Positions 1 to 37,501 of a stretch of 64,000 nt of DNA are shown here, one piece after another. Position 1 is the first letter of the stretch; each line of letters opens with the position of its first letter. Below the pieces are notes generated by a model that worked only from the letters and a program-made list of their open reading frames with translations, searched no databases and was not told the DNA's origin. The DNA comes from Escherichia coli (lineage in GTDB: Bacteria; Pseudomonadota; Gammaproteobacteria; Enterobacterales; Enterobacteriaceae), in assembly GCF_003018115.1 (NCBI RefSeq), contig NZ_CP027457.1; one strand, written 5' to 3'. The translations under genes were made by a program, and so were the position numbers.

Positions 1-736
1 TCAGCTCTCCCCGGGAAATCCGTTGTGAAATGAGTGTCAGCCAGATGCGCTCCGTCAGCGTTTCAGGAAGGCTGTAATCGTTTTGCAAACTGCTCAGCCA
101 CGATTTACTGTTGAGCACCGGTTGTTCTTCCAGTGTCTGGCGGATGGCACTGGTCAGTCTTTTCAGCGCCTGGATCTGGCTGGCCGCCCATAGCAGCGTC
201 ACTAATGCAGCCAGCCAGTACAACAACCCGCCCCACCACATCAGTGAGGGTGAAATATCGAACTGCAATGCGATCAATGGTGCGTATGCAGAACACGCCA
301 TAAGGAAAAAAGCAGTATAAAAACAGCAGTAATACCCGTTAATTTCCTTGCTGATATCTTCAGGTGTGAGCCCGTTCTGCTGAATGGTTCTTATCTGCAC
401 GGGAAGAGCCAGCAGACCAGCAGCGAGAGCGGTGGTCAGAATAAATTTTACAGAGTCAAAAGTATGAGCCTCCAGTGCGATATGTTTACCATCAAGTCCC
501 CACATGAAGCTGATGATCATTCCGGCAATCGTCAGAAATACGCCTGCCAGCCAGCGAATATGGAATAACCGGGTTATGCGTTCAGTGATATAGCCAGCCA
601 GTAAAGCCGGGCCGAACAGACACAGCAATACGAATCCTGCCAGCGCAGACGCCGTGCTGGTTAATGCTCTGAACAAAAGGCGAAGAATGGCAAATCCTGC
701 GATCAGCAGAATCAGCGCGCCGACTATCTGTAACAT
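1..736 (-). CDS. yeeR: YeeR-like inner membrane protein, partial (C-terminus lies beyond the window start)
   Basis: Minus-strand frame open from ATG at 736-734 to the window edge; hydrophobic N-terminus MLQIVGALILLIAGFAILRLLF resembles my recollection of CP4-44 YeeR; sits 120 bp downstream of flu as in the K-12 flu-yeeR arrangement. Absent from the ORF track, presumably because it has no stop inside the window. Confidence 0.55.
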   Translation of the reverse strand, partial: MLQIVGALILLIAGFAILRLLFRALTSTASALAGFVLLCLFGPALLAGYITERITRLFHIRWLAGVFLTIAGMIISFMWGLDGKHIALEAHTFDSVKFILTTALAAGLLALPVQIRTIQQNGLTPEDISKEINGYYCCFYTAFFLMACSAYAPLIALQFDISPSLMWWGGLLYWLAALVTLLWAASQIQALKRLTSAIRQTLEEQPVLNSKSWLSSLQNDYSLPETLTERIWLTLISQRISRGEL

Positions 737-856: not shown

Positions 857-3800
857 TCAGAAGGTCACATTCAGCGTGGCCTGACTGCTATAACCTTCAG
901 CGCTGCTGCCGTTGATGCTGTGGGCATAACCGGCCTGAACGCCCAGGGTGATATTTTCCCGGACACGGGCTTCCAGTCCGGCCTGCAGATCCAGTGAAGT
1001 GCCATTCTGTGAGGGAGAGAACGTCATCCCGCTGCCTGCGGTGGAGGTCCCCACACGCATATCACCCCGGGAGCTGAAGGTGCGGATAACGGAAGGCTGT
1101 ACCCACCAGTTCACCGGCAGTTCACGCACACTGTGTTTTGCACTGTCACGCAGGGGGGCACGGGATGAGGTGCCTTCACCAAAGGTCATATCGTTGTGGC
1201 TGCCCAGACGGAAACCGGCACGCACATGCTGTGCACTGCCATGCCCGAACTTCACATAACCGGCGTTGTCCTTACCGTCATCCAGCGAAAGCCCCTGCCA
1301 GGTGTACTGCAGCCGTGGCTCCAGCATCAGGTTGTCAGTGATACTGAAGGGCAGACCGGTTTCCAGTGAGCCCAGCCAGCCCCAGCCCCGTGCGCGGAAG
1401 TCGTTATTGCCCGATGACGCTTTCATACTGTGGCGGGTTCCCTGTGCCACAATGTCAGCCCACAGGCCGGAGGAGGTGTGTGCCAGGTTCATATATCCGC
1501 CCAGGCTGCCGGCATCATCCCGGACCGTGCCGGCGCGGGAGCCGTCATCATCCTTAACATCAACGGAAGAATGGCCTGCAGCACCATACACTCCTGTCGT
1601 CAGTGACATACCGGCGACCTCTGTTCTGAGCAGGTCACCCTCCAGACGGACGAAGCCATAGCTGCCGCTGCTTTCCGGCGTGGCCCCACGGGCAATACCG
1701 CCGTTGTTATCGTGACCGAGATGGCCGCCCTGAATGCTGAGACGGACGCTGTTATTTTCACCGTTTACACCGGTCTGATGGCTGCGGGAGCCTGCCAGAA
1801 TCCGGTCATAGTCCATTGCCTGTGTCAGCATGGAGGCGTACAGGGGGACTTCAGCACGATAACGTTCTTCACTGCGCAGATACCAGCTCTCATCACTGTC
1901 CCGGTTGAGGGTGTAGTTAAAGGCCCCGGCCTGCAGCATATTCCCCTGGACAAAAGCCCCTTCCTCCGTGGTGGCACCGTTAATGGCCTCAACCACCTGA
2001 ATACCCTTACCGGTGGTCGCCAGCCCCGTACCACTGTTGCCGGCGTTCACCAGATTCAGGATGGTTTTTCCGGTTGCCCTGCCACCGTCAATGACCAGTC
2101 TGTCAGCATTGTTCTGCGCCATATCCGGACGTACACGCAGGCTGATGGTGCCATTCTGCCCGTTCAGGTTTTTCACCTGCAGAGTTGTCGGAACGAACTT
2201 CCCTGTGCGGGCGGAGGTGAAATGAATCTGTCCGGCATGGCTGAGGTCATCCACCACCGACTGAACCGTGGCGTTATCGGGAATATTCCAGGTGGCACCA
2301 GAGGCGAGAGTGACATTCGTGGGGTCAATGGCACCGTTCAGCACTGTGCTGCCGGTCAGCTTCAGGGCCGTGCCGCGCTGAGCAATGACATCCGTGGTGA
2401 CGGTACTGTCGTTCAGCGTCAGCGTGCCTTCATTCAGGTTGACGGCTTTCTGGGTGAGTGTGGTGTTGCTGACAGTGAGTGTTCCACTTCCTGATTTTTC
2501 CACCCTGCCGTTACCGGTGAGAGAGCCTCCCTGCAGGAGTGCATCGCCTTCACGGATGGTCAGGGTATCGTTGTTCACCGTCTTCCCGGAAAGGGTAAGT
2601 ATGGCGCCGTTATTCAGCGTGGTGGTGCCCGCCAGTGTGCCGCCCCTGGCGGTGAACAGTCCGCCATTTACCGTGGTATCCGTGGCCGTATCACCGGCGT
2701 TCAGCGTGAATGAACTGCCTTTTTCCAGCATCAGGGCATCCGCCTGACCGCCTCCGATACGGAATGCCTTTCCGTCGCTCCGGGTACCACTGACAGCGGC
2801 ACCGGAATCGGCCAGCAGTACACCGCCATTTCCCATGGATACGGTGGTGGCGGTGCCACCGTTGCGGACATCCAGCGTTCCGCCATCATCCACGCGGGTA
2901 TTAGTGGCTGTGTGTCCGGTCAGCACATCCAGGCGTCCGCCATTTTCCAGTACGACATTATCAGCTTTACCCTCCACAACAGAGAATGCTCCCAGGCGGT
3001 TTATGCCGGTAACGGTTGCAGCCGTACTGGTAACCAGTGCGCCGCCCTGCTTCAGGGTGACATTCGTGGCTGTACCACCGGCGTCCACCTGCAGTCTGCC
3101 CTTCTGATTAACGGTGGTATTCCCGGCCACACCCCCGTTTTTGACAATCTGCCAGCCGTCACTGTTCACAACAGTGTCAGACGCTGTACCGCCGTTGTGC
3201 ACATACTGGTATCCCCCATTCAGCGTGGTATCCAGTGCGTGACCATGTACAGTCTGGTCGCCGCCGGCATAAACCACAGTGGTATTTGCCGTTCCTTCAG
3301 TTCTCACAATCTGGCGACCGTTTTTATTGATGGTTGTGCGTACGGCATCCCCGCGAACAAACTGCCCGGTATCACCGTTTTCTGCATCCGGTCCCCCTTC
3401 CGCCCCGGTATTAACAACGGTATCCGTTGCCACTGTACCGGGCTTGACGACCTGCCAGCCCTTATCATTAATGACGGTTCCTGTGGCTATCGCCCCCTCA
3501 TGCATCCACTGTTCGCCACCATTCAGCGTGGTGTTCACTGCCCGTCCCTGAAGGCTCTGTCCGCCTCCGGCACTGATAACCGTGTCTGAGACACTTCCAC
3601 CGGGGTTCACTCTCTGAAGACCACCACTGGTGACAGTCGTTTTGTTGGCTGTTCCGCTATCCTGTACCCATTGCCCGCCGGTATTGGCCTCATTGTCCGG
3701 CCCGTACTCCAGACCGGTACTGATGGTCATTCCGTTGACCGTACCGAAGACAATCTGGTTGTCATGATTTGTCAGTGTTCCGCCGTTCACGGTTTCTCCC

Positions 3801-3976
3801 GCCTGTACAACCGTGTCAGCAGCCAGTGCCGGGACTGACGTGACAGCAGCAAGAGACAGCGCAACCGCCACACCAGCGCGTTTTCCCCGTGAGCGGGCCA
3901 GTTCGGAGGCCACCACCAGGGTGCCCGTAATGTGATTCCATACCAGCCTGTAGCTGGTGTTCAGATGTCGTTTCAT
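857..3976 (-). CDS. flu: Antigen 43 (Ag43) self-associating autotransporter adhesin
   Basis: 1039-aa product from MKRHLNTSYRLVWNHITG (signal peptide), repetitive passenger domain, C-terminal beta-barrel ending ATLNVTF; near-identical to my recollection of Ag43. The track ORF is extended 25 codons upstream; start chosen at the Met preceded by AAGGA. Confidence 0.95.
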   Translation of the reverse strand: MKRHLNTSYRLVWNHITGTLVVASELARSRGKRAGVAVALSLAAVTSVPALAADTVVQAGETVNGGTLTNHDNQIVFGTVNGMTISTGLEYGPDNEANTGGQWVQDSGTANKTTVTSGGLQRVNPGGSVSDTVISAGGGQSLQGRAVNTTLNGGEQWMHEGAIATGTVINDKGWQVVKPGTVATDTVVNTGAEGGPDAENGDTGQFVRGDAVRTTINKNGRQIVRTEGTANTTVVYAGGDQTVHGHALDTTLNGGYQYVHNGGTASDTVVNSDGWQIVKNGGVAGNTTVNQKGRLQVDAGGTATNVTLKQGGALVTSTAATVTGINRLGAFSVVEGKADNVVLENGGRLDVLTGHTATNTRVDDGGTLDVRNGGTATTVSMGNGGVLLADSGAAVSGTRSDGKAFRIGGGQADALMLEKGSSFTLNAGDTATDTTVNGGLFTARGGTLAGTTTLNNGAILTLSGKTVNNDTLTIREGDALLQGGSLTGNGRVEKSGSGTLTVSNTTLTQKAVNLNEGTLTLNDSTVTTDVIAQRGTALKLTGSTVLNGAIDPTNVTLASGATWNIPDNATVQSVVDDLSHAGQIHFTSARTGKFVPTTLQVKNLNGQNGTISLRVRPDMAQNNADRLVIDGGRATGKTILNLVNAGNSGTGLATTGKGIQVVEAINGATTEEGAFVQGNMLQAGAFNYTLNRDSDESWYLRSEERYRAEVPLYASMLTQAMDYDRILAGSRSHQTGVNGENNSVRLSIQGGHLGHDNNGGIARGATPESSGSYGFVRLEGDLLRTEVAGMSLTTGVYGAAGHSSVDVKDDDGSRAGTVRDDAGSLGGYMNLAHTSSGLWADIVAQGTRHSMKASSGNNDFRARGWGWLGSLETGLPFSITDNLMLEPRLQYTWQGLSLDDGKDNAGYVKFGHGSAQHVRAGFRLGSHNDMTFGEGTSSRAPLRDSAKHSVRELPVNWWVQPSVIRTFSSRGDMRVGTSTAGSGMTFSPSQNGTSLDLQAGLEARVRENITLGVQAGYAHSINGSSAEGYSSQATLNVTF

Positions 3977-4193
3977 CAGCTTTTCCTTACAGAGGGTGAA
4001 TAAAAAAGCCGGTACCCACAAATGTGGATACCGGCAGGTACAAAACAGCATGGTCAGATAAAGTGGTTTTTCCCGGACATAAATGCTTCCCCTCTCTCAT
4101 CCGCCAGAGAAGTATCAGTCCGTTGTGTGCAATTCCGTTCTGCATGATGAAGAGATTCAGCTGCCTTTTCGCAGGCCATTAACCACCATAAAC

Positions 4194-4229
4194 GATCGAT
4201 AGTAACGATCGATACCTGTTTTATCGATC
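4194..4229 (-). promoter_or_regulatory. agn43 phase-variation switch: three Dam GATC sites in the OxyR-binding region
   Basis: GATC at 4194-4197, 4207-4210 and 4226-4229 inside ATAG/CTAT-rich sequence, about 220-250 bp upstream of the flu start codon. Confidence 0.8.
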
Positions 4230-4348
4230 GTTTTATTCTATTGATAGCAGAGCGGTCACGCAAGAGAAACAGGAGGGGCATGAGGTGTTTGTATCATGTT
4301 TTCAGTTGGTTAACGCAATGTAATCAGGCATTTCCCCTGGCAGACTGT

Positions 4349-5221
4349 TCAGAAGAAAATCCAGTTCCATACCGCGCGGGCAACAGAGACCACCGAGTCA
4401 CGGACGGCACGCAGAACCGTGCGTGCAACAGAGGCAATACAGACGCTCTCCGCCGTGTCAAATATCCGGTCCACCGCACCGGTAAACTGTTCACGGGCCT
4501 GAGACCGGACAGATTCCGTGCGCAGCTCGTCCTGCAGGCGGGTCATCAGGGGGCTGGCGGCATGGTCGGGAAGCGCTGTCATGAGCGCACTGACCAGCGT
4601 ATCCAGTTCCCAGCCGGTGCGGGCCGATACGGCAACAACCGGATGTACGGGCCGGAACAGACGGAATACCGCCTCCGTTTTTTCGCGAATGTTCTGTGCC
4701 TGTGCGGGAGAAGGCTGAATGCCGGCCATATCCCATTCATGGCAGGGCTCCGTTTTGTCGGCCTGCGTCACCACAAACAGCACCTGCTGATGCCCCCGGT
4801 GCAGAATGTGTCGCCAGAAATACTCATCCACAGACAGGGCCCGGTCATCGGCTTTAATCAGCCACAGTACCAGGTCCAGTTCAGACAGAATGTTACGGTA
4901 CAGGGCTTCATACTCTGCATCCCTGTCACGGCTCTCGCCCACCCCGGGCAGGTCAGTGATAACCATGCTGTGACCGTGACCACTCAGACGGAAGCGCTGC
5001 ACTTCCCGGGTGCCGGCGTGAACATCACTGACCGGGGTGACCTCCCCCTGAAACAGTGCATTACAGAGTGAGGATTTACCGGCCCCGCTTTTCCCCATAA
5101 TGCCAATCACGGGTTCGTGACTGGTGAGTTTGCGCAGATGTTCCAGGATGTGACGGGAAAGTGAGTAAGGCAGGGAAGAAAGTGGTTTTTCAATTGCCTC
5201 AATGGCATCAGACGGATTCAT
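4349..5221 (-). CDS. yeeP: YeeP/YkfA-family GTPase (intact)
   Basis: P-loop GIMGKSGAGKSS and family-typical DLPGVGES; start set at MNPSD rather than the track's upstream extension; positioned upstream of flu as in CP4-44. Confidence 0.85.
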   Translation of the reverse strand: MNPSDAIEAIEKPLSSLPYSLSRHILEHLRKLTSHEPVIGIMGKSGAGKSSLCNALFQGEVTPVSDVHAGTREVQRFRLSGHGHSMVITDLPGVGESRDRDAEYEALYRNILSELDLVLWLIKADDRALSVDEYFWRHILHRGHQQVLFVVTQADKTEPCHEWDMAGIQPSPAQAQNIREKTEAVFRLFRPVHPVVAVSARTGWELDTLVSALMTALPDHAASPLMTRLQDELRTESVRSQAREQFTGAVDRIFDTAESVCIASVARTVLRAVRDSVVSVARAVWNWIFF

Positions 5222-5384
5222 ACATGTATTCCCGGTGAAAAAAGACAAAACCCCGCGCACCGGAAAGATGGCGGGGGATTCACGGAGATAATATCTGTCT
5301 GAAATTATTTGAAATGCAGGTATATGCAGCTAATTTGTATCAGCTTATTGGTACAGTACTAAACCTCATCTGACAGTCCGCTCT

Positions 5385-5399
5385 GTGCCAGGAGCGGAC
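5385..5399. repeat. 15-bp direct repeat copy A (GTGCCAGGAGCGGAC) within an 8-bp-stem palindrome GTCCGCTC-tgtgccag-GAGCGGAC
   Basis: Exact 15-mer shared with 6896-6910 in the same orientation; the two copies bracket the HEPN-motif gene and the short tyrosine recombinase gene. Confidence 0.6.
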
Positions 5400-5502
5400 A
5401 TTCCGATATTGAAAAGTAAATTGTCTTGCTGTATTTTTTCAGTCATAAAAATGAATAAGGATTCTCAGATGAGTGAGATATTTGAACTATTCAGTTCTAC
5501 TG

Positions 5503-6219
5503 TCAGTCCTTAAGTTTATTCATAGAAAGCCGCTCTTGGCGTTTAAGCTCATTTAAAGTGAAAAAAGCACATTTATTAGATAAAATATAAATAGTTCCTA
5601 CTAACCGATGTAAGCGCCTCATTTTTTCGGGCATAGAGAATTCAGCATTTTTGACAAACATTAAAGAATCAACCCCAGCAGAGAACATATATTGTAAACT
5701 TTCCATATTAAAAGCCTCTAGTGGATTTACTTCGTTAATATCAATACTATTAACAGACCTCTCTATTTCGAGGTAATCTTCACTTGTCATTGAATAGTCT
5801 ATTTTATGAGCGAATTTATTGCGGATAGAATTCAGCTTAACTAAAGAATTTGCAATTGAGAGAGGTAAACCTAAAGCAACACAGATCTCCAGTTTTGGAG
5901 TAAAATATCGTGATGGTTTAACGAACTGCTCAGTACCAGGCTTCCTAACATTGTTGATGAATACTTCCAAGAAATTCTCAATCAATAGGCTAAGTCTTAG
6001 CAAGACTGATGCTTCGTCATTTATACTTAGTAAAGGTGCAAATTTTTCTGCGTCAAGAAAGAAACCGAGGTCATTATTAATCGCTACATATCCAGTTAGA
6101 TTGTTATTTGACTTCATATTCATAAAAACCTTATCTTGTATATTAGCGGCATATTGTACCATAAATTGAATCGTGGTTTGTTCTAAGAATGGACACAAGA
6201 ACTTCCTCTCCTCACTCAT
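5503..6219 (-). CDS. hypothetical protein with a HEPN-like R-N-x-x-A-H motif (possible Abi-type RNase)
   Basis: AT-rich ORF; motif SIRNKFAH matches the HEPN Rx4-6H signature in its common RNxxAH form. Start uncertain: track starts at TTG 6228, ATG at 6219 (MSEER), or ATG at 6123 (MNMKS, preceded by AAGG). Confidence 0.5.
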   Translation of the reverse strand: MSEERKFLCPFLEQTTIQFMVQYAANIQDKVFMNMKSNNNLTGYVAINNDLGFFLDAEKFAPLLSINDEASVLLRLSLLIENFLEVFINNVRKPGTEQFVKPSRYFTPKLEICVALGLPLSIANSLVKLNSIRNKFAHKIDYSMTSEDYLEIERSVNSIDINEVNPLEAFNMESLQYMFSAGVDSLMFVKNAEFSMPEKMRRLHRLVGTIYILSNKCAFFTLNELKRQERLSMNKLKD

Positions 6220-6910: not shown

Positions 6911-7026
6911 CTAACTAAGTTCATACAACATTGATTATTGAAGATTAGGTCAGAAATAAATACTTTATTTTGATAATTTAGTTACGTTAGAACACCGCAA
7001 TGTACAACGTAAAAATGAGGAATAAT

Positions 7027-8388
7027 ATGACTCGGAGTGAAATAAACGTCTGGGATGAGAGAAGAGGTACCAATAGTCATCGAGTGGAGGAGATTCGATC
7101 TGAAGCTCAGCACGACCTTTCTCGATTGATTCACTCGTCTGCTTTCAGACGATTACAATCCAAAACACAGGTTCTTGGTCTGGGTGAAAGTGATTTCTAC
7201 CGCACACGACTGACTCATTCTATGGAAGTCGCACAAATCGGTTCAGGTCTTCTTGCTAAGTTGAAAATAAAATATAAAGGTAAAGAGCAAGAGCAATTTT
7301 TACCAGATAACGCTCTTATGCAGGCAGTATGTCTCGCACATGATATTGGACATCCTCCATTTGGTCACGGCGGTGAGGTAGCTCTTAACTACTGTATGCA
7401 GGATTACGGTGGTTTTGAAGGAAACGGTCAGACGCTTCGCATTCTCTCGAAACTAGATAAGTATACCTTAGAACACGGACTCGATCCTACACGCAGACTT
7501 CTGCTAGGCATACTGAAATATCCGGTTAAATACTCGGAGCTAGTGGTTACAAAAGACAGAATCCCGGTCACTATCGGATCACCAAACTGGCTCTTTAAGT
7601 CATCTGATTTTAAACCTCCAAAATGCTATCTAGATTCAGAATGCGATGTTGTAAAATTTGCTCTCTCACCATTTACTGAACAGGATCGGAGGCTTTTTAC
7701 TTCCGTTGAAGATGGTCAAACTAAATCCGATCATAAAAAAGCTTCTTATAAAGCTCTCGATACAACTATAATGGATCTTGCCGATGAAATTTCGTATTCG
7801 CTGCACGATTTGGAGGATGCTATTTCTCTCGGAATGGTGACACGAGAAATGTGGATGGAGCATTTCAGTGAACATGAAACCCTATTTACTAACTGCCATG
7901 GAAAAATATTTTCCGAAACATGCCAATCTGTAGCGGATAGCCTTTTTGGTGAAAGTTACAAGAGAAAAGAGTGCATCGGGATGCTGGTTCACCTGATGAT
8001 TACAAGCGTTGAGCTTATTACAAAGAATCCAGCATTCGAATGTGGCATGCTCAAATATAATGCGGTCCTTCCGGAAGCGGTCGAAGCACTACGGTTGAAA
8101 ATTTTCAAACTGGTCAAAAATAAAGTAATTAAGCATGAAAATGTACAGCAGCTTGAATTCAAGGGACAAAAGTTGATTGTTGAGCTCTTCGGTGTGTTGG
8201 CGAACGATCCGTGTCGGTTTCTACCTGCCTCAACGAGGGAAATTTACGAGCGGCAGACTAGCTTAGACAAGAAGGCTGGTATGCGAGTCATTTGCGACTA
8301 TGTTTCAGGGATGACTGATGACTATGCAACAAAGCTTTATGAGAAGATCCTTATTCCACGCAAAGGGTCTATTTTTGACCATCTCTAA
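7027..8388 (+). CDS. dGTP triphosphohydrolase-like HD-domain protein (candidate anti-phage dGTPase)
   Basis: HD motifs RLTHSMEV, HDIGHPPFGH, DLADEISYSLHDLEDA, YVSGMTDDYA; alignable by eye to E. coli Dgt but AT-rich and shorter (453 aa); start at ATG 7027 with GAGG six nt upstream. Confidence 0.8.
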   Translation: MTRSEINVWDERRGTNSHRVEEIRSEAQHDLSRLIHSSAFRRLQSKTQVLGLGESDFYRTRLTHSMEVAQIGSGLLAKLKIKYKGKEQEQFLPDNALMQAVCLAHDIGHPPFGHGGEVALNYCMQDYGGFEGNGQTLRILSKLDKYTLEHGLDPTRRLLLGILKYPVKYSELVVTKDRIPVTIGSPNWLFKSSDFKPPKCYLDSECDVVKFALSPFTEQDRRLFTSVEDGQTKSDHKKASYKALDTTIMDLADEISYSLHDLEDAISLGMVTREMWMEHFSEHETLFTNCHGKIFSETCQSVADSLFGESYKRKECIGMLVHLMITSVELITKNPAFECGMLKYNAVLPEAVEALRLKIFKLVKNKVIKHENVQQLEFKGQKLIVELFGVLANDPCRFLPASTREIYERQTSLDKKAGMRVICDYVSGMTDDYATKLYEKILIPRKGSIFDHL

Positions 8389-8449
8389 CACGGTAAGAAT
8401 GATACTCTGAGTTCAATTGACCTATAAACATTAACCAAGGCATCTACCA

Positions 8450-8470
8450 GGGGGGATATCAAATCCCCCC
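8450..8470 (+). terminator. GC-stem hairpin downstream of the dGTPase-like gene
   Basis: GGGGGGAtatcaaaTCCCCCC inverted repeat about 60 nt after the stop codon; the T-tract is weak. Confidence 0.35.
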
Positions 8471-9414
8471 ATTCTGAATTTGTTCATGCAGAATCGGTGA
8501 ACGTTCTCATCTGAGCGTTAAACGCCAATAATCATTGATCTACACTGATCATTAATACACCTTAATACCATTAGCGTCTTACTCCGTTATGAGAACAAAC
8601 GCGAACTTCCGCTGTTCGCTCAAAGCAGACCATTCGCTCAGTTAACGCATCAGTGTCGTGCTAGAAGTAGAAGTGGTTAACAACAATGTGAGTTAATCAA
8701 CGGAGAGCAGGTCAACTCTAACCTGTATCAAAAAACAAATGTGTCATAAAGATGCCGCATGCCTTAATTTGAGTATAATTGAGACGGAAGTAGACGGTTT
8801 ATGACTAGATATTGTTGATATATAGCTATTTGAAGAGTTGTAGCGCAAGCGCATAGCCCAAACTAATAACGCTACGCCCCTTATCAAAGAGCGGCAACGA
8901 TGCACAGCTCGCACGAGACAATATTCGCACAAGAAATCAGGTTCGGAAATAACCAGCTCTGGCATGGCGGGGAGAGTATCAATGGTCAGGCTTTCGGTAA
9001 GATGCGGCGGGATGAGGTCGGCGTGGGTTACAGCAGTACAAGGTCGCCCACAGAGGGTAAGCCACAGCGTGGAATCCTCGGTTTCTATCAGGGATTCGGC
9101 GAAGCGGGCGCAGTTGTCGACCAAGACGATGAAATCCATTGTGGCATTATAAGGGAACGAACAATAGATCGAGTAAATCGCAGTCAGGGACAAGGATTGT
9201 AGTCATAGAGAAGTCTCCTGTAACGGTTTTCAGGAGGCTAATCCCGACGCCTGATTTCGCAGGCGCGGAAAGAGAGGATACTGCGACCATTAATCCGCCA
9301 CAAGTCATTTACGTACATAAATCGCGCAGTCAGATCCGACTCCCACTGTAGTTCTTGAACTTGATACCACATTTAGCTAATTTAGCTAAATTATCCAGTA
9401 TACCAGTGGTTGCC

Positions 9415-9660
9415 ATGAATATGAATGAAGATGAGATTTATCGCCATATCCGGCAGGCACTTTCCAGTGCGCCGCGTAACCAGTACACCGTCGAGCTACA
9501 CCTGCAAATGATTAAATATGCCGACGAACTGGAACACATTACGGCAAAAGCCTTTTGCGAAGGCACCGGTCTGAGCCAGAGCCTCGGTACCGAATTCAGC
9601 AAAATGCGTAACTTAACCCGTCGGTTGAAGGCCGCCGGTCTGAATACCGATCTGCTGTAA
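9415..9660 (+). CDS. small hypothetical protein immediately upstream of hsdM
   Basis: ORF 9355-9660 has protein-like composition but no convincing Shine-Dalgarno before TTG 9355 or ATG 9415/9421; ends 40 nt before hsdM. Confidence 0.3.
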   Translation: MNMNEDEIYRHIRQALSSAPRNQYTVELHLQMIKYADELEHITAKAFCEGTGLSQSLGTEFSKMRNLTRRLKAAGLNTDLL

Positions 9661-9699
9661 CCGACTTACGGCAGATTATCGCGCAAAACGAGATATTTA

Positions 9700-12138
9700 A
9701 TGGCTATCAAAAAAACCGAACTCTATTCTTCCCTGTGGGCAAGCTGCGACGAACTGCGTGGCGGGATGGACGCCAGCCAGTACAAAGACTATGTACTGAC
9801 CCTGCTGTTTATGAAGTACGTTTCCGATAAGTATAAAGGCGATCCTTACGGGATGATCGTGATACCCAAAGGAGCCAGCTTTGACGATATGGTTGCGCTG
9901 AAAAATGACAAAGAGATCGGCGACAAAATCAACAAAATCATCCACAAGCTGGCGGAAGAGAACGGCCTGAAGGGCGTCATCGACGAAGCCGACTTTAACG
10001 ACGAAGATAAGCTCGGCAAAGGCAAGGAAATGATTGACCGCCTGAGCAAGCTTGTCGGTATCTTTGAAGGGTTAGATCTCTCCAGCAACCGGGCCGAAGG
10101 CGACGATCTGTTGGGCGATGCCTATGAATATCTGATGCGTCACTTCGCAACCGAATCCGGCAAGAGTAAAGGGCAGTTTTACACTCCGGCGGAGGTGTCA
10201 CGTATTCTGGCGAAGGTGATTGGTATTACTCCCGATACGCCGCGAGATGCAACGGTTTATGACCCAACCTGTGGCTCTGGTTCGCTGCTGTTGAAAGTGA
10301 ATGATGAAGCCCGGCGCGGACTATCGATTTTCGGCCAGGAGATGGATAACGCTACCAGTGCACTGGCGCGGATGAACATGATTCTGCATAACAATGCCAC
10401 CGCGAAAATCTGGCAGGGTAATACGCTGAGCGATCCGCAGTGGAAAGAGGCGAACGGCAAACTGAAAGCCTTCGATTTTGCCGTGGCGAACCCGCCTTTT
10501 TCCAATAAAAACTGGACCAACGGGTTGACGCCGAAAAAAGATCCGTTTGAACGCTTCGGCTGGGGCATTCCGCCGGAGAAAAACGGCGATTATGCTTTTT
10601 TGCTGCATATCATTAAAAGCCTGAAAAGTACCGGCAAAGGCGCGGTGATCCTGCCCCATGGCGTACTGTTTCGCGGTAACGCCGAGGCAAATATCCGTGA
10701 AAATCTAATCAAGCAGGGCTATATCAAAGGCGTTATTGGTTTGCCGGCCAACCTGTTTTACGGCACCGGCATCCCGGCGTGCATTATTGTGATTGATAAA
10801 GAGCACGCCCACAGCCGCAAAGGCATTTTTATGATCGACGCCAGTCGGGGCTTTATCAAAGATGGCAACAAGAACCGCCTGCGTAGCCGAGATATTCACC
10901 GCATTGTGGACGTGTTCAACCATCAGCGAACGGTGCCGGGCTACAGCCGGATGGTGCCCTCCAGCGAGATCGCCGGAAATGATTACAACCTGAATATTCC
11001 TCGCTATATCGAGAGCGGCGAGCCGGAAGATTTGCACGATCTGACCGCGCACTTACAGGGCGGTATTCCAGCACGCGATGTGGATGCTTTGCAGGATTAC
11101 TGGCGGGTATTCCCTGCCCTGCGCAACGTGCTGTTTGCTGACGACCGTTCCGGTTACTGTCGGGCGCAGGTGAACGCGCAGCAGGTGAAACCAACCATTC
11201 TGGCACATCAGGAGTTTAAGGATTTTGCCACCCGCAGCCTGCTACCGTTTAAAGCGTGGGTGAAAGAGGCAAGTCTGGAAGAGATTCGCAAAGGTGATAA
11301 ACCCAAAGCGCTGATCCACGATATCAGCGAGATGTTGCTTGTGCAGTACGCCAACAGTGAGTTGCTGAACAAGTACAGCGTGTACCAGATCCTGATGGAT
11401 TACTGGGCTGATGTCATGCAGGACGATGTGTATGTGATTATGCAGGATGGCTGGCAAGCCGCCGCGCAAATCCGCGAGCTTCAACCGGTGAAAGGCAAAG
11501 ATGGCAAAAACATCTGGAAAGAAACGCACGATTTCGAGTTTACCAAACAGCGCTACAAGGCCGATGTGCTACCCCGTTCACTAGTGGAAATTCGCTGCTT
11601 CCCGGAACTGCTGGATACGTTGAACCGCGCGCAGGAGCGCAGTGAAGAAGCCAGTCGTCAGCTAGCGGAACTCATCGAGGAGCAGGCAGGGGAAGAGGAT
11701 CTGCTGGCTGAGGCGAAGAACGATAAAGATAAGGTGACGCAAAAGCTGGTGAATGCCCGTCTGGCACAGTTGAAGAAAACCCCTGCCGACCCAGATGAGC
11801 TGGCAGTGCTGAACCGCTGTCTGGCGCTGATTAAGGCCGAGGCCAGTGCGAAAAAAGCGCTGAAAGCCGCACAGGAAGCGTTGGATCGAGCGGTATTTAA
11901 ACATTATCCCACGCTGGATGAAACAGCGATTAAAACGCTGGTAGTGCAGGATAAGTGGCTGGCAACGTTGCAGGCAGGAATCAAGGCGGAGATTGAGCGT
12001 ATTACCCAGCAACTGGCGTCGCGCGTAAAGGAGCTGGAAGAGCGTTATGCTGAACCGTTGCCAGCGCTTGAAGCCTCCGTTGAGGCGTTGAGCGAGAAAG
12101 TGGCCGGGCATTTGCGGGCGATGGGGCTGGAGTGGTGA
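9700..12138 (+). CDS. hsdM: type I restriction-modification N6-adenine DNA methyltransferase subunit, long form (812 aa)
   Basis: N-terminal HsdM signature LWASCDELRGGMDASQYKDYVLTLLFMKYVSD, AdoMet motif DPTCGSGSLL, catalytic NPPF; about 300-aa C-terminal extension rich in charged/coiled-coil-like residues. Confidence 0.95.
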   Translation: MAIKKTELYSSLWASCDELRGGMDASQYKDYVLTLLFMKYVSDKYKGDPYGMIVIPKGASFDDMVALKNDKEIGDKINKIIHKLAEENGLKGVIDEADFNDEDKLGKGKEMIDRLSKLVGIFEGLDLSSNRAEGDDLLGDAYEYLMRHFATESGKSKGQFYTPAEVSRILAKVIGITPDTPRDATVYDPTCGSGSLLLKVNDEARRGLSIFGQEMDNATSALARMNMILHNNATAKIWQGNTLSDPQWKEANGKLKAFDFAVANPPFSNKNWTNGLTPKKDPFERFGWGIPPEKNGDYAFLLHIIKSLKSTGKGAVILPHGVLFRGNAEANIRENLIKQGYIKGVIGLPANLFYGTGIPACIIVIDKEHAHSRKGIFMIDASRGFIKDGNKNRLRSRDIHRIVDVFNHQRTVPGYSRMVPSSEIAGNDYNLNIPRYIESGEPEDLHDLTAHLQGGIPARDVDALQDYWRVFPALRNVLFADDRSGYCRAQVNAQQVKPTILAHQEFKDFATRSLLPFKAWVKEASLEEIRKGDKPKALIHDISEMLLVQYANSELLNKYSVYQILMDYWADVMQDDVYVIMQDGWQAAAQIRELQPVKGKDGKNIWKETHDFEFTKQRYKADVLPRSLVEIRCFPELLDTLNRAQERSEEASRQLAELIEEQAGEEDLLAEAKNDKDKVTQKLVNARLAQLKKTPADPDELAVLNRCLALIKAEASAKKALKAAQEALDRAVFKHYPTLDETAIKTLVVQDKWLATLQAGIKAEIERITQQLASRVKELEERYAEPLPALEASVEALSEKVAGHLRAMGLEW

Positions 12139-13445
12139 TGGTGGATTTAATGGTGAATGAGCAACGATCAGGTACGGCGGGGAAAGATGTGCCTGCGGGG
12201 TATAAGCTGACTGAGGTGGGGGTGATTCCTGAGGATTGGGTAGTAATCTCTATTGATGACTGTACAACCAAAGTTGGTAGTGGAAAAACACCAACTGGTG
12301 GAGCATCTGTTTATATTGATAGCGGACGCCCTTTTGTCCGTAGCCAAAATGTTGATTGGGGAAGATTAGATCTCGCCGATGTCGTACATATTACAGATGA
12401 AACCCATAACACATTCTCTGGTTCTGAAATTCAGCAAGATGATGTTTTACTCAACATAACGGGAGCATCTATCGGCCGATGCGCTAAAGCTGATTTTAGG
12501 GTTATAGGTGGTAATGTTAACCAACATGTTTGCATCATCAGAACAGAGGCAAAAAAACTCTCCCCATCCTTACTGGTTGAATTAATCAATTCAAATTATG
12601 GACAAAACCAGATTGATAGTTATCAAGCCGGAGGAAACAGAGAAGGACTGAATTTTTCTCAAGTTAAAAATCTTAAGTTTGCTATTACACCAAACTCCCT
12701 TGAACAAACGGAAATTGTCAGAACATTAAATGATATTAATGCATTCACTCTCGCTCTGGAAAACTTAATTGCTAAAAAACAGGCCATAAAAGCCGCTGCT
12801 ATGCAACAACTACTCACCGGTAAAACCCGTTTGCCGCAGTTTGCGTTGCGCAAAGATGGATCTGCTAAGAGATATAAAAAGAGCAAGTTGGGGGAGACTC
12901 CAGAAGATTGGGCAGTTAATAATATTGGAGATTTATTCTCCATTACCGCAGGAGGAGATTTAAGACAGTCTGAATTCTCTAATATTCAATCTGAAAAACA
13001 TCTTTACCCTATTTATTCCAATGCAATTAGTCATTATGGTTTATATGGCTATTGCCAGAGTTATGATTATGTTGGTGACTATCTAACAATCACTGCGAGG
13101 GGAGGAATCGGCCATGCCGTGGCAAGAAAAGGAAGATTCTGTGCAATTGGACGATTATTAGTTCTTAGTCCAAAAGGAGATTCAAACGTAAAATTTTATG
13201 AAGGGTATATAAACCAATACTTATCATTTGCAAATGAGAGCACTGGAGTCCCTCAACTTACAGCTCCTCAAGTTGCAAAATATCCGGTTGTTTCCCCATG
13301 CATTGAAGAACAAACCGCCATCGCCACCATCCTCTCCGATATGGACAAGGAAATTCAGACCCTGCAACAACGTCTGGACAAAACCCGTCAGCTTAAACAG
13401 GGGATGATGCAGGAGCTGTTAACCGGGAAAACACGCTTAATATAA
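12138..13445 (+). CDS. hsdS: type I restriction-modification specificity subunit with two target-recognition domains
   Basis: Two AT-rich variable blocks separated and followed by conserved LTGKTRL repeats ([13 protein letters not shown] and [11 protein letters not shown]); ATG at 12138 overlaps the hsdM TGA (TGATG). Confidence 0.9.
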
Positions 13446-13456
13446 AAGGGAAACCT

Positions 13457-14107
13457 ATGACTACAGCGCCAGCCTCAATCCGCAAAAAGCCCTGATCTGG
13501 CGTATCGTCCATCGGGACAATATCCCGTGGATTCTGGACAATGGTCTGCACTGCGGCAACAGCCCGGTGCAGGCTGCTAACTGGATCAATATCGGCAACC
13601 CGGAGCTTATCGGCAAGCACGCCGGACATCCGGTACCTGTCGGGACGGGCGGGACACTGCGTGACTATGTGCCATTTTATTTTACCCCCTTCTCGCCAAT
13701 GCTGATGAACATCCACAGCGGACGTGGCGGCATTAAGCAACGCCCCAATGAAGAGATCGTTATTCTGGTCAGCAGCCTGCGGCACGTGGCAGCACACGAC
13801 GTGCCCTTCGTGTTTACCGACAGCCATGCTTACTATAACTGGACCAACTACTACACCAGTCTGGATAGTCTGGACCAGATCGACTGGCCCATTTTGCAGG
13901 CACGGGACTTTCGCCGCGATCCAGACGATCCGGCTAAATTTGAACGCTATCAGGCAGAGGCGCTAATCTGGCAACACTGCCCGATCTCGCTGCTGGATGG
14001 GATAATTTGTTACAGCGAAGAGGTCAGGTTACAATTAGAACAATGGTTGTTTCAGCGTAATCTAACAATGTCCGTTCACACACGGGCTGGATTGGTACTT
14101 CTCATGA
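13457..14107 (+). pseudogene. darT: DarT-like (DUF4433) DNA ADP-ribosyltransferase gene, reading frame disrupted as read
   Basis: ATG 13457 with AAGGG upstream opens a frame that stops after 12 codons; DarT-like sequence ([46 protein letters not shown]) continues in the -1 frame from about 13459 to 14103; the original frame resumes for the last codons before a TGA that overlaps the darG ATG (ATGA at 14104-14107). Confidence 0.55.
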
Positions 14108-15171
14108 TCACATATACACAAGGCAATTTACTGGACGCACCGGTGGAAGCTCTGGTGAATACGGTTAATACCGTCGGTGTCATGGGGAAAGGCATCGCGT
14201 TGATGTTTAAAGAGCGCTTCCACGAAAATATGAAAGCCTATGCCCTCGCCTGCAAACAAAAGCAGGTGATCACCGGCAAAATGTTCATTACCGAAACCGG
14301 GGAACTGATGGGACCGCGCTGGATTGTTAATTTTCCGACCAAACAGCACTGGCGCGCTGACTCCCGCATGGGGTGGATTGAAGATGGCTTACAAGACTTA
14401 CGTCGATTTTTGATTGAAGAGAACGTGCAATCCATCGCCATTCCACCGCTGGGCGCAGGCAACGGTGACTTGAACTGGCCGGACGTTCGGGCGCAGATTG
14501 AATCTGCCCTTGGCGACCTTCAGGACGTTGATATCCTGATTTACCAACCAACTGAAAAATACCAGAACGTTGCCAAAAGCACTGGCGTAAAAAAGCTCAC
14601 TCCCGCCAGAGCCGCCATCGCTGAACTGGTGCGTCGCTACTGGGTATTGGGGATGGAGTGCAGCCTACTGGAAATCCAGAAACTGGCCTGGCTGTTACAA
14701 CGCGCCCTTAAGCAGCATCAACAGGACGATATCCTCAAACTGCGGTTTGAAGCTCACTATTATGGCCCCTATGCGCCCAATCTGAACCATCTGCTTAATG
14801 CGCTGGACGGCACCTATCTTAAAGCCGAGAAACGCATCCCGGACAGCCAACCGCTGGATGTGATCTGGTTTAACGATCAGAAAAAAGAACACGTTAATGC
14901 GTATCTGAACAGCGAAGCCAGAGAGTGGCTACCGGCGCTGGAGCAGGTCAGCCAGTTAATTGACGGCTTTGAATCGCCGTTTGGTCTGGAGCTGCTGGCA
15001 ACCGTAGACTGGTTGCTGAGCCGTGGCGAATGTCAACCAACACTGGATTCCGTTAAGGAAGGGCTGCACCAGTGGCCTGCGGGCGAACACTGGGCCAGCC
15101 GTAAGTTGAGGCTGTTTGATAATAATAATCTGCAATTTGCCATTAACCGCGTAATGGAGTTCCATTGCTGA
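14104..15171 (+). CDS. darG: DarG-like macrodomain protein (predicted antitoxin / ADP-ribosyl hydrolase)
   Basis: [39 protein letters not shown] with IPPLGAGNG is a macrodomain signature matching my recollection of DarG; as read it is fused in frame to the upstream DarT-like region (track ORF 13567-15171). Confidence 0.7.
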
Positions 15172-15189
15172 GGGTTTAAGGAGCGCCTT

Positions 15190-18100
15190 TTGAGTACCGT
15201 GGGCCAGCGCGAACGCGCCACACAGCAGCGTCTGATTCAGTTTTTTGTTGAAGATTTAGGTTACCGCCATCTGAGTCACCGCACCGGGTACACCGGGAAC
15301 AGCAACATCGACACTAATATACTGAGCGCGTGGCTAAAACGGCGCGGCGTTAATGATACGTTGATCACCCGGGCGTTGCGGCAACTGGATTCCGCCGCCG
15401 CTCTGGGCGAAGGCAAAAAACTCTATTACGCCAATAAAGAGGTCTATCGCCTGCTACGTTACGGCGTGAAAGACAAAGAAGGCGCAGGCGAGCAGAACCA
15501 AACCGTGTGGCTGATTGACTGGGCCAACCCACAAGCCAATGATTTCGCCATCGCCGATGAGGTGACGGTCAAAGGCGAGTACTGCAAGCGCCCGGATCTG
15601 GTGCTGTACGTTAACGGCATTGCGCTGGGCGTGATTGAACTTAAGCGTTCGTCAGTGCACGTCAGCGAAGGCATCCGGCAGAATCTCGATAATCAAAAGA
15701 AAACCTTTATCCGCGATTTCTTCACCACTATGCAGTTAGTGATGGCGGGCAACGATACGCAGGGCCTGCGCTACGGCACCATCGAAACCCCGGAAAAATA
15801 CTATCTGGAGTGGAAAGAAGATAATCCAGGCGACTATACACATAAACTCGACTTTCATTTAAGTCGTCTGTGTAGCAAATCCAGGCTGTTGGATATCGTC
15901 CATAATTACATTGCCTTTGATGTCGGAGTGAAAAAACTCTGCCGCCATAATCAGTTCTTCGGCGTCGAGGCGGCTAAACAACATATTGCCCGTCGTGAAG
16001 GCGGTATTATCTGGCACACACAGGGATCGGGTAAAAGCCTGACGATGGTCTGGCTGGCGAAGTGGATCCGTGAAAATGTGCCAAACTCCCGCGTGTTGAT
16101 TGTGACTGACCGCACCGAACTGGATGAACAGATCGAAAGCGTGTTTATGGGCGTGAATGAAGATATTTATCGCACCTCCAGCGGCAACGATCTTATCGCA
16201 ACGCTCAATCATCCTAACCCGTGGCTCATTTGCTCGCTGGTGCATAAATTTGGTCGTCGCAGCGAAGCTGAAGACAATGCGGCTACCGACGCCTTTATCA
16301 CCGAATTACAGCAGTCCCTGACGAAAACATTCCGCGCCAAAGGCGATCTGTTTGTTTTTGTGGACGAGTGCCACCGCACACAATCCGGCAAGCTGCATAA
16401 CGCCATGACTGCCATTCTGCCGGACGCCCTGTTTATCGGTTTTACCGGCACACCGCTGATGAAGAAAGATAAGAAGAAGTCGGTTGAGGTGTTCGGCCCT
16501 TATATCCATACCTATAAATTTGATGAAGCGGTGGCCGACGGTGTGGTGCTGGATCTGCGCTACGAGGCACGCGATATTGACCAGTATCTGACATCAGAGA
16601 AAAAGGTCGATGACTGGTTTGAAGCCAAGACTCGCGGTTTGTCGAATTTAGCCAGGACCCAGCTTAAGCAAAAGTGGGGATCAATGCAGAAGCTGCTCTC
16701 CAGCAAGTCGAGGCTGGAGCAGATCGTTAACGACATTTTGCTGGATATGGATACCCGTCCACGCCTGATGGACGGGCGCGGCAACGCCATGCTGGTATGC
16801 AGCAGTATCTATCAAGCCTGCAAGGTTTACGAGATGTTCAGCCAGACCGAGCTGGCAGGAAAAGTAGCGATTGTGACCAGCTATCGCCCCGATGCCGCCA
16901 GCATCAAAGGCGAAGAAACGGGCGAAGGGTTAACGGAGAAACTCTCTAAACACGCCACCTATCGTAAAATGTTGGCTGACTATTTTGAACAAAGTGAAGA
17001 GAAGGCCGCCGCACGCATTACCGAGTTCGAGCGGGAAGTGAAACAGCGTTTTATTGAAGAGCCGGGGCAAATGCGCCTGCTTATCGTGGTGGATAAGCTG
17101 CTGACTGGCTTTGACGCGCCGTCCGCCACCTATCTCTACATTGATAAAACCATGACCGACCATACGCTGTTTCAGGCGATTTGTCGGGTGAACCGGCTGG
17201 ACGGTGAGGATAAAGAGTATGGCTATATTATCGATTATAAAGATCTGTTCCGTTCGCTGGATAAAGCGATTACCGATTACACCACGGGCGCGTTTGATGA
17301 TTACGATCGGGACGATGTGGCCGGGTTGCTGAAAGACAGGCTGGAGCAGGCGCAACTGGATCTCGACAGCGCGCTGGAGATGGTTCGCAGCTTATGTGAA
17401 CCCGTCAAAACCCCGCGCAGCCTGCAGGACTATCAGCACTATTTTTGCGGTGAATCAGGAGAGAATCAGACTTCGTTAAACGAAAAAGAGGCGCTGCGCC
17501 TGACATTTTACCAGTGCGTCGCCCGTCTGCTACGCGCTTATGCCAGCATCGCCAATGAAATGCCGGAAGCAGGCTACACTGCCGAAGAGGTAGAGAGCAT
17601 TCGCGCCGAAGTCGCTGAATTCGAAAAACTGCGCTATGAGATTAAGCTGACCAGCGGCGATCTTCTGGATATGAAGCGCTTTGAACCCGCTATGCGTCAT
17701 TTACTGGATATGTATGTTCGCGCCGATGATAGCGAAGTGCTGATGGATTTTGAAGAGTTAAGTCTGATTGAACTGATTGTCGAGAAAGGCTTGGCGGCGA
17801 CCGTCGCCCTGCCGGATGATATCCGTAATAATCAGGATGCGATGGCGGAAACCATCGAAAACAACGTGCGCAAAACCATCGTGGATGAAAACCCGGTTAA
17901 CCCAAAATACTATGGACGCATGTCGCAGCTGCTGGATGAACTGATTACCCTTCGCCGACAAAATGCGCTCAATTATCAGCAGTATCTGGAACGTATCCGC
18001 GATTTGTGTAAACAAGTCATCCGCCCGGAGCAAACCGCCGGAGCGTGCTACCCTGCCACCATGGATACACAAGCAAAGCGCGCCTTCTATGATAACTTCG

Positions 18101-18285
18101 GCCACGACGAGGTACTGGCGACCCGCATAGATACGACGATTCGCTATACCAAAAGGGCAGAGTGGATTGGCGATCGTTTTAAAGAACGGGAAATTGCCAA
18201 CGCATTACGTGAAGAGACCGCCAGCTATAATATTGATATTGATGAGGTGATAGCGCTTGCCCGTCAGCAGAAGGAATATCACTGA
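15190..18285 (+). CDS. hsdR: type I restriction-modification restriction subunit (SF2 helicase/nuclease)
   Basis: 1031 aa; helicase motifs HTQGSGKSLT, VFVDECHRTQ, FIGFTGTP; apparent TTG start at 15190 with AAGGAG eight nt upstream. Confidence 0.93.
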   Translation: MSTVGQRERATQQRLIQFFVEDLGYRHLSHRTGYTGNSNIDTNILSAWLKRRGVNDTLITRALRQLDSAAALGEGKKLYYANKEVYRLLRYGVKDKEGAGEQNQTVWLIDWANPQANDFAIADEVTVKGEYCKRPDLVLYVNGIALGVIELKRSSVHVSEGIRQNLDNQKKTFIRDFFTTMQLVMAGNDTQGLRYGTIETPEKYYLEWKEDNPGDYTHKLDFHLSRLCSKSRLLDIVHNYIAFDVGVKKLCRHNQFFGVEAAKQHIARREGGIIWHTQGSGKSLTMVWLAKWIRENVPNSRVLIVTDRTELDEQIESVFMGVNEDIYRTSSGNDLIATLNHPNPWLICSLVHKFGRRSEAEDNAATDAFITELQQSLTKTFRAKGDLFVFVDECHRTQSGKLHNAMTAILPDALFIGFTGTPLMKKDKKKSVEVFGPYIHTYKFDEAVADGVVLDLRYEARDIDQYLTSEKKVDDWFEAKTRGLSNLARTQLKQKWGSMQKLLSSKSRLEQIVNDILLDMDTRPRLMDGRGNAMLVCSSIYQACKVYEMFSQTELAGKVAIVTSYRPDAASIKGEETGEGLTEKLSKHATYRKMLADYFEQSEEKAAARITEFEREVKQRFIEEPGQMRLLIVVDKLLTGFDAPSATYLYIDKTMTDHTLFQAICRVNRLDGEDKEYGYIIDYKDLFRSLDKAITDYTTGAFDDYDRDDVAGLLKDRLEQAQLDLDSALEMVRSLCEPVKTPRSLQDYQHYFCGESGENQTSLNEKEALRLTFYQCVARLLRAYASIANEMPEAGYTAEEVESIRAEVAEFEKLRYEIKLTSGDLLDMKRFEPAMRHLLDMYVRADDSEVLMDFEELSLIELIVEKGLAATVALPDDIRNNQDAMAETIENNVRKTIVDENPVNPKYYGRMSQLLDELITLRRQNALNYQQYLERIRDLCKQVIRPEQTAGACYPATMDTQAKRAFYDNFGHDEVLATRIDTTIRYTKRAEWIGDRFKEREIANALREETASYNIDIDEVIALARQQKEYH

Positions 18286-19001
18286 TGCCAATCATGCAAA
18301 TAGGCTCGTTACACTTGCTGGTCAACCGTAAGGCGATTAAGAATCTGCATATCAGCGTGCTGCCGCCTGATGGCAAAGTCCGCGTTTCAGCGCCGGAACA
18401 TATGACGGAGACGGCGATTCGTATGGCGGTTGCTTCACGCTTTCGCTGGATCAGAAAACAGCAGCAGGATTTCGCCAGACAGCCTCGTCAATCAGAGAGG
18501 GAAATGGTCAGCGGAGAGTGCCACTATCTTTGGGGCCGAAGATATCGCCTACTTGTGATTGAGCGTCACGGGCGTCACGAAGTAAAAGTTGCGGGAAATA
18601 ATAAGCTCCAGCTTTATGTTCAACCGGGAACCCGTGATGAAAATAAGGCATTGGCGTTAAGTGAATTTTATCGACATGAACTAAAACAGCAGGTGGCTAA
18701 GCTTCTACCTGAATGGCAGGACCGAATCGGTGTTCCCCTAACATTCTGGGGCATCAAAAAGATGAAAACCTTTTGGGGCACCTGTAACACTACAACAAAA
18801 CGAATCTGGCTCAATCTGGAGCTAATTAAGAAGCCGCCGGAGTGTCTGGAGTATATTCTGGTGCATGAACTGGTTCATCTTCTGGAACGTCACCATAATG
18901 CTCGCTTCCGGTTGCATATGGATCGGTTTATTCCTGACTGGCGTGAGCGTCGGGATTTGTTAAATAATATGCCGTTAGCGTTTGAGGCATGGGAGTATTG
19001 A
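18285..19001 (+). CDS. HExxH zinc metallopeptidase (M48/DUF45-like) coupled to hsdR
   Basis: HELVHLLE motif; ATG overlaps the hsdR stop (TGATG at 18283-18287). Confidence 0.8.
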   Translation: MPIMQIGSLHLLVNRKAIKNLHISVLPPDGKVRVSAPEHMTETAIRMAVASRFRWIRKQQQDFARQPRQSEREMVSGECHYLWGRRYRLLVIERHGRHEVKVAGNNKLQLYVQPGTRDENKALALSEFYRHELKQQVAKLLPEWQDRIGVPLTFWGIKKMKTFWGTCNTTTKRIWLNLELIKKPPECLEYILVHELVHLLERHHNARFRLHMDRFIPDWRERRDLLNNMPLAFEAWEY

Positions 19002-19096
19002 TTGAGCCTGTAACTGTTTTTTGTCCATAAATTAACCTTCATTTGATGCTGGATTGAACATATCAAAATCAGACAATTACACAAATCTATGTACAG

Positions 19097-19168
19097 GCTC
19101 AACTCCTGCCATGGAACGTAGTACTCACCAATAAGTAAGCATCAATACGGCGCTCCGTTAACGCTTAC
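19097..19168 (+). mobile_element. IS66-family right-end remnant (about 70 bp)
   Basis: CTCCTGCCATGGAACGTAGTACTCACCAATAAGTAAGCATCAATACGGCGCTCCGTTAACGCTTAC matches the last ~65 bp of the complete IS66 at 21836-21899 with a few mismatches. Confidence 0.6.
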
Positions 19169-19452
19169 TAGCATGGTTATCTCCTTAAAAAATTGAGGCG
19201 ACAACTATGCTGACACAGGGGGTTACTCACCGATCTCCTTCACGGTAATACGCAGTTCTTCAGAACCCGCCTCCGATACCAGCCTGGCGGTCGCCCCGGC
19301 GCAACAGAATAAATCAACCATCGTCAGACTGCGATCATTCGTAATGTTCCGGGGACCTCATCTTCAGTAAGCGTAAACTGACCGCCGTATGTAGCCATTA
19401 AGCCAGTATTGGTAACGTAGGTGCCCACCTTTTCAACTAGTGGACACCTGTT

Positions 19453-36800: not shown

Positions 36801-37501
36801 CCCTTCAGTGCACTGACACGACCATCTGCAGTTATCCGGTTAGCGCCTGCAGTGACAGTTAAATCCTTCGCATGAAGCGCGGCATTCACTTCCGTTGCAC
36901 GGGCAATAATGGATACGGCATCGCTCCGGGTGCCGTCCAGGCCCGCGCCATTGATGGTGATACTGCCTTCAGTCACCTCCAGCGCCTGCAGGCTGCCGTC
37001 GGCATTCATCACAGGTCTGCCCGTGGTGAGCGTCGCGTGCGGCGTGTTGATAAAACCACAGCCGTCACAGGTGATACCATACGGGTTGGCAACAATCACA
37101 TTCGCCGCTTTGCCGGCCACTTCCGTATAGCCCTGCAGCAGTGAACGGTTACCGCCGGTCACTTCGTTGATGATACCCTTCGCTTCCCCGCCCGCTTTCA
37201 GGTTCGGGTTATTCTGTATCAGTCCACCAAGCTGCGTCGGATTAAGCTTACCGGTGGCATTATTGAGAATCAGCCCTTCCTTCCCGACGTTGTAATCCGT
37301 AAACCGGTTATGCGAAATCCCGGCCCCGTTCGGCGTGGCAATGTTCACGACCGGCACACCATTTGCCGCTTTATCCATTCCGGCCCCGTTTTGTGGGGTG
37401 ATGACGGCCCCCACAGCCGGTAACAACGGCTGCCCGGCGATAATCGTACTGATAAGGTAACTCAGCAGGCGGTAAGTGAAGCGAACGGGAGGCTGATGCA
37501 T
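27824..37501 (-). CDS. cdiA: contact-dependent inhibition exoprotein CdiA (3225 aa) with a deaminase-like C-terminal toxin
   Basis: N-terminal two-partner-secretion domain ([21 protein letters not shown]), long repeat region, pre-toxin VENN ([11 protein letters not shown]), C-terminal HAEVGV...(~25 aa)...PVCGYC. Confidence 0.95.

Follow-up and report, generated by a model that had tools for sequence, protein, structure and literature searches.

Organization of the locus

The window considered here (the whole stretch of DNA analysed, 64 kb long) carries a copy of agn43 (flu) on the minus strand. Its coding sequence (857..3976) is an uninterrupted open reading frame of 1039 aa, running from an ATG at 3976 to a stop codon at 857, and matches the NCBIfam model NF033177 (auto_Ag43, Ag43/Cah autotransporter) with a score of 1860 bits, against a cut-off of 1200. 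The gene served by the three-GATC region described below is, thus, a full-length member of the Ag43 family of self-associating autotransporters. The initial annotation had placed a switch of this kind upstream of flu, and the position is correct, as GATC-I, the first of the sites met by transcription, lies 253 nt 5' of the ATG. Upstream of the switch is a yeeP-like gene of the GTPase family (4349..5221, minus strand), present in every locus fetched and also in Citrobacter. A yeeR-like gene (1..736, minus strand), of which the window edge leaves only the start, was identified by mapping onto NZ_CP027310.1 and is probably in the same operon as agn43.

The window is 99% identical to the genome of E. 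coli 2014C-4135 and collinear with it, save for one IS66 copy; the three GATCs correspond there to NZ_CP027310.1 3159143-3159178. The switch is located in a genomic island, in which the order of genes is an integrase fragment, an anti-phage dGTPase, a type I restriction-modification system with an embedded DarTG module, IS66 elements, and cdiBAI with orphan toxin/immunity modules. The coordinates of the defence and cdi genes are approximate, having been obtained by mapping to a collinear annotated genome. The defence cluster adjoining the switch (about 7000-19300) comprises the dGTPase and hsdM, hsdS and hsdR, with the DarT/DarG toxin-antitoxin pair inserted between hsdS and hsdR (darT is frameshifted in the reference genome), and is followed by an M48 peptidase and the IS66 copies. 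The cdiB and cdiA genes (contact-dependent inhibition) and then the orphan modules occupy about 27825-39281 on the minus strand. The two longest runs of sequence devoid of GATC in the window, 28657-34027 and 34843-39407, are located in this region. Farther along, positions 58219-58412 of the plus strand match the Rfam family RF02855 (Ysr251, a Yersinia antisense sRNA) with a score of 188 bits (gathering threshold, 100); collinearity places this match near an IS3/partial malonyltransferase/ycdU region.

Promoter and leader

The -10 hexamer, TAGAAT (4235..4240, minus strand), was read from the sequence. It ends 5 nt before GATC-I and is found in all 18 alleles compared, including those of Citrobacter. 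The -35 hexamer, TTGCGT (4258..4263, minus strand), is separated from it by a 17-nt spacer and is weak, with matches at three of six positions, which is why a generic promoter scan did not pick up the agn43 promoter. By homology, transcription is predicted to start at about position 4229, the G of GATC-I, which would place the GATC sites at or just downstream of a sigma-70 start, where a bound repressor would block transcription. In K-12, isrC is annotated as beginning with the G of the corresponding GATC-I. The irmA-linked EC958 allele has the G of its GATC-I exactly 228 nt from the ATG, and 5' RACE has mapped the start of the agn43-yeeR-irmA transcript to 228 bp from the start codon (PMC4807369); the start is therefore independently placed on GATC-I.

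The 5' leader (3995..4231, minus strand) is an IsrC/IS102-like RNA, matching all 206 positions of the covariance model RF00124 with a score of 74.8 bits (gathering threshold, 46). The three GATCs span roughly +1 to +36 of this leader of about 250 nt. An intrinsic terminator (4002..4035, minus strand) with a stem of 12 pairs (4035..4008) and a U-run (4007..4002) was detected both by a terminator scan and by RNA folding. It is conserved with K-12, where the final T of the U-run, located 28 nt 5' of the flu ATG, is the annotated end of isrC. The translation initiation region (3974..3988, minus strand), consisting of a Shine-Dalgarno sequence AAGGA (3988..3984) and the ATG (3976..3974), is also conserved with K-12. 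Antitermination of IsrC has been reported to control Flu expression, providing a second layer of control (PMC5389530). Two terminator-like hits within the operator (4204..4232, plus strand, and 4211..4193, minus strand) were dismissed as mere GATC palindromes, and small open reading frames across the leader, such as that at 4054..4281 on the minus strand, are regarded as spurious.

The GATC cluster

The three GATCs, annotated initially as spaced 13 and 19 bp apart, are present at these distances (start to start). In the direction of transcription on the minus strand, they are GATC-I (4226..4229), GATC-II (4207..4210), 19 nt downstream, and GATC-III (4194..4197), a further 13 nt downstream. The description of the surrounding sequence as rich in ATAG and CTAT holds only loosely: positions 4180-4260 contain two ATAG (4199 and 4244) and one CTAT (4238), and the main motif is the palindrome ATCGAT/CGATCG.

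With a length of 36 bp, this cluster is the tightest such triple in the window, which contains 188 GATCs in total. Clustering alone is weak evidence, because about half of the simulations in which 188 GATCs were placed at random yielded a triple within about 33 bp. The spacing is more discriminating: GATC-N9-GATC-N15-GATC has a single occurrence in the window, 100 dinucleotide-preserving shuffles yielded none, and the 13/19 pair arose in about 0.4% of the random-placement trials.

Two operator cores

The alleles compared were sampled across the identity range from two E. coli-wide searches, to which were added three loci retrieved when one genome per species was scanned. The 18 sequences were aligned without gaps in a register anchored on the GATCs, as a MAFFT alignment with K-12 had mis-gapped the operator. 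The 19/13 spacing is found in 18 of the 18 alleles. Four blocks are invariant throughout: ATAGAAT, which holds the -10 hexamer, ACGATC, CGATCGTT at GATC-II and ATCGATC at GATC-III. The promoter spacer, the flanks and the spacer between GATC-II and GATC-III are variable. Between GATC-I and GATC-II, the alleles have one of two discrete cores, type A (GATAAAACAGGTATC) or type B (RATRYCTATTTYAYC). The core of the window (4211-4225) is of type A, like those of the GI-selC copy of EC958 and of O157:H7 cah. Type B is exemplified by K-12, CFT073 agn43a and the irmA-linked GI-pheV copy of EC958, and has a shorter distance from GATC-I to the ATG (222-228 nt, versus 252-253 nt for type A). Strains such as EC958 and MJ-T possess one copy of each type.

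At a coverage of at least 80%, the type A regulatory region was found in 3451 of 5426 complete E. coli genomes (nearly two thirds) and the type B region in 1841 of the same 5426. The window therefore carries the commonest form, and the textbook operator of K-12 belongs to a minority. The type A core is identical in nine of the 10 type A alleles sampled, with differing flanks, which argues for purifying selection on the core. Across the 3451 genomes, the promoter and operator of type A agn43/cah regions are 90-97% identical. These regions, which include those of EC958 GI-selC, O157:H7 cah and other pathogenic E. coli, differ from the window by point differences only, in the promoter spacer and the spacer between GATC-II and GATC-III. 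The 42-nt operator of the EC958 GI-selC copy (copy 1) is identical to that of the window. Some type A alleles drive a shorter Cah protein of 948 aa, whereas that of the window drives an Ag43 of 1039 aa.

The K-12 MG1655 locus (flu, b2000, with the isrC leader, b4435) resembles that of the window in many respects. Its GATCs, at 1818, 1837 and 1850 of the sequence compared, have the same spacing, 19 then 13, and it shares the blocks ACGATC, CGATCGTT and ATCGATC. The -10 hexamer is also TAGAAT, at an equal distance from GATC-I, and the -35 hexamers (TTGTCC in K-12, TTGCGT in the window) are both of TTG type, at the same distance and with a 17-nt spacer. The final 90 nt or so of the leader, with the terminator and ribosome-binding site, are nearly identical, and a yeeP-like gene lies upstream and Ag43 downstream in both. 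The core, by contrast, differs at 8 of 15 positions (GATAAAACAGGTATC in the window, AATATCTATTTTATC at 1822-1836 of the K-12 sequence), and the CTAT element of the compact register of K-12 is AACA in the window allele. The middle of the leader of the window is unrelated to that of K-12 in sequence, and the leader is 31 nt longer (253 nt from GATC-I to the ATG, rather than 222 nt).

The scan of one genome per species for the exact pattern retrieved three loci only, and the species representative of E. coli was not among the matches. The same -10 box and three-GATC operator, of a type B-like form, are found in Citrobacter braakii ATCC 51113 (5146..5108, minus strand of the contig) and C. amalonaticus (940..978, plus strand). 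In these genomes, the operator is located downstream of a yeeP-like GTPase gene and drives, via a short leader of about 120 nt, a signal-peptide protein of 154 aa that is neither IrmA nor an autotransporter. This protein gave no Pfam or NCBIfam match and has only four homologue clusters in a large protein collection; its gene is followed by the DUF932 and RadC genes of an island. The switch cassette is, thus, not exclusive to agn43. A further agn43 regulatory region of type A, nearly identical to that of the O157 type, was observed on a 1.5-kb contig of a metagenome-assembled genome labelled 'Collinsella sp.', which is most likely a mis-binned E. coli contig.

The presumed OxyR site

The operator, or presumed OxyR-binding region (4190..4241, minus strand), is delimited by homology to K-12 and overlaps the -10 hexamer and the three GATCs. 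The 37-bp compact OxyR consensus is matched at 13 of 20 positions in the window allele, a score reached by 36 other positions of the window; K-12, in its own register, reaches 14 of 20. Motif scoring cannot, therefore, demonstrate OxyR binding, and a weighted-consensus OxyR scan was rejected as evidence because it did not distinguish the operator from background. Binding of OxyR to the type A core is inferred from homology. Two half-site-like elements, ATAGAATAAAACGAT (-12..+2) and ATCGTTACTATCGAT (+20..+34), each match ATAGnTnnnAnCTAT at eight of 10 positions. The former overlaps the -10 box and GATC-I and the latter spans GATC-II and GATC-III; both are common to all alleles, with a separation of 17 bp. 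The invariant elements shared by the two types seem more consistent with an extended OxyR arrangement, in which the half-sites are 17 bp apart, than with a compact one. A separation of 17 bp is reportedly the arrangement used by reduced OxyR, as described by Toledano et al. in 1994. As a lead, such an arrangement would suit an operator with a variable centre.

Regulatory model and alternative explanations

In agn43, Dam methylates the three GATCs of the regulatory region; OxyR bound to the sites in their unmethylated form acts as a repressor of transcription and keeps Dam from acting, and methylation abrogates OxyR binding. Replication opens a window for competition on hemimethylated DNA, and switching occurs at a rate of about 1 in 100 to 1 in 1000 per generation (PMC4872104, PMC3764049, PMC2909390, PMC13337833). 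Three GATCs have been noted in both groups of alleles (PMC2808357). In uropathogenic E. coli, agn43-yeeR-irmA forms a single operon, which is repressed by OxyR in CFT073 and EC958 (PMC4807369). The match of the window to this system extends to the 19/13 spacing, the orientation, the invariant -10 and GATC blocks, the IsrC leader and the full-length Ag43, and bears out the original assignment as a Dam/OxyR switch. On this basis, the region is very probably the regulatory region of an island-borne agn43 (flu) allele with a Dam/OxyR phase switch; the system is a known one, of which this is an unremarkable, intact copy.

By analogy with K-12 and uropathogenic strains, from which OxyR binding, the methylation states and switching are all extrapolated, the switch would function as follows. 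The sigma-70 promoter would start transcription at or beside GATC-I (about 4229, minus strand), and the first 40 transcribed bp or so would contain the three Dam sites within a site for the LysR-type repressor OxyR. With the GATCs unmethylated, OxyR would be bound, blocking RNA polymerase and shielding the sites from Dam, in a heritable OFF state; were Dam to methylate the sites first, OxyR would be unable to bind and the promoter would fire, in a heritable ON state. Each replication would generate hemimethylated DNA for which Dam and OxyR would compete anew, resulting in stochastic switching at a rate near 1 in 1000 per generation. In ON cells, the transcript would run through the IsrC-like leader of about 230 nt to the intrinsic terminator, and only read-through would reach agn43 and probably also yeeR and irmA. 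Neither dam nor oxyR is in the annotation covering the window; both are core E. coli genes.

The same players act in the Salmonella gtr (P22) and opvAB systems, in which OxyR and Dam compete at GATCs located in OxyR half-sites (PMC2909390; PMC4856963). These systems have four GATCs in two pairs, forming alternative OxyR sites, one of which serves activation and the other repression (PMC2909390), whereas the window has three GATCs and a single presumed repressor site, at +1 to +36, downstream of the promoter. A switch of gtr/opvAB type, with four paired GATCs upstream of the promoter, was rejected on these grounds. A pap-type Lrp/Dam switch, with two GATCs about 100 bp apart in Lrp sites, was also rejected, as the interval 988-5884 contains no GATCs other than the three within 36 bp.

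A chance grouping of GATCs in an AT-rich intergenic region, with no function, would be compatible with the clustering as such, given that, about half of the time, 188 sites scattered at random over 64 kb would include a triple within about 33 bp. However, the exact spacing was absent from all 100 shuffles, is kept in the 18 alleles, from two genera, and occurs at a position homologous to the characterised K-12 element. The conservation data already refute this explanation, the probability of which is negligible. The palindromes might instead act mainly in the RNA, as a 5' hairpin of the IsrC-like leader involved in stability or antitermination, being Dam sites only incidentally. The Rfam IS102 model does pair the GATC-II/GATC-III palindrome as a 9-bp stem, and the minimum-free-energy fold of the leader builds 5' hairpins from the GATC palindromes. 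The stem columns are invariant, however, so there is no covariation supporting an RNA constraint, and GATC-I and the element overlapping the -10 box lie outside the stem yet are equally conserved. In the classical K-12 literature, mutations sparing the RNA hairpin and destroying the GATCs are said to abolish phase variation. As experiments on homologous alleles have established the mechanism acting on the DNA, a mainly RNA-based role appears very unlikely; RNA and DNA roles are, in any case, not mutually exclusive.

More weight can be given to the possibility that the switch is recognisable but the allele does not vary in phase, because the type A core binds OxyR too weakly or too strongly, the gene being locked ON or OFF or merely modulated by OxyR. 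The core lacks the central CTAT element and differs from that of K-12 at more than half of its positions (8/15), and its OxyR motif score is at background level. The experimental evidence found, namely OxyR repression and 5' RACE, concerns type B operators alone (K-12, CFT073 and EC958 GI-pheV), so that the switch function of the window allele rests on homology. A literature search for experiments or methylome calls on type A or cah alleles retrieved nothing specific, and the supplements of the EC958 methylome paper contain no agn43 entry. Against a non-varying allele, GATAAAACAGGTATC is identical in nine of the 10 type A alleles sampled despite their differing flanks, type A is the majority form in E. 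coli, and the two best half-site-like elements and the three GATCs are shared with type B. A locked or merely modulated allele is, on balance, improbable, and a functional Dam/OxyR phase switch remains the preferred interpretation.

GATC-poor surroundings

The three operator GATCs are the sole GATCs in the 4.9 kb between 988 and 5884, where 17 would be expected. The agn43 coding sequence of the window contains one GATC, versus 8.4 in shuffles of synonymous codons (p about 0.001); none is present in K-12 flu (8.6 in shuffles) or in the cah-type gene of EC958 (6.5 in shuffles), and the irmA-linked agn43 of EC958 contains one. TCGA, AATT, CGCG and ACGT are likewise depleted, indicating that the effect is not strictly specific to GATC. 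GATC-free stretches of at least 1 kb have been reported in mobile elements (PMC4659465). The scarcity of GATCs over about 4.9 kb around the operator could be selected, insulating the switch from processive Dam or from SeqA.

Biological implications

These comparisons suggest that the agn43 operator may exist in E. coli in two versions, type A and type B, each conserved separately. It is conceivable, if rather unlikely, that the two cores and the GATC-poor surroundings serve to tune switching. If the extended OxyR arrangement is correct, affinity for OxyR and the rates of ON/OFF switching could both depend on the core, and strains with both cores (EC958 and MJ-T, for example) could possess two epigenetic switches, each tuned independently. 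For the strain studied here, the regulatory region suggests that this agn43 copy, probably with yeeR and irmA behind it, is likely to be active in a subset of cells only, which would be relevant to aggregation, to biofilm formation and to the interpretation of transcriptome data for this strain.
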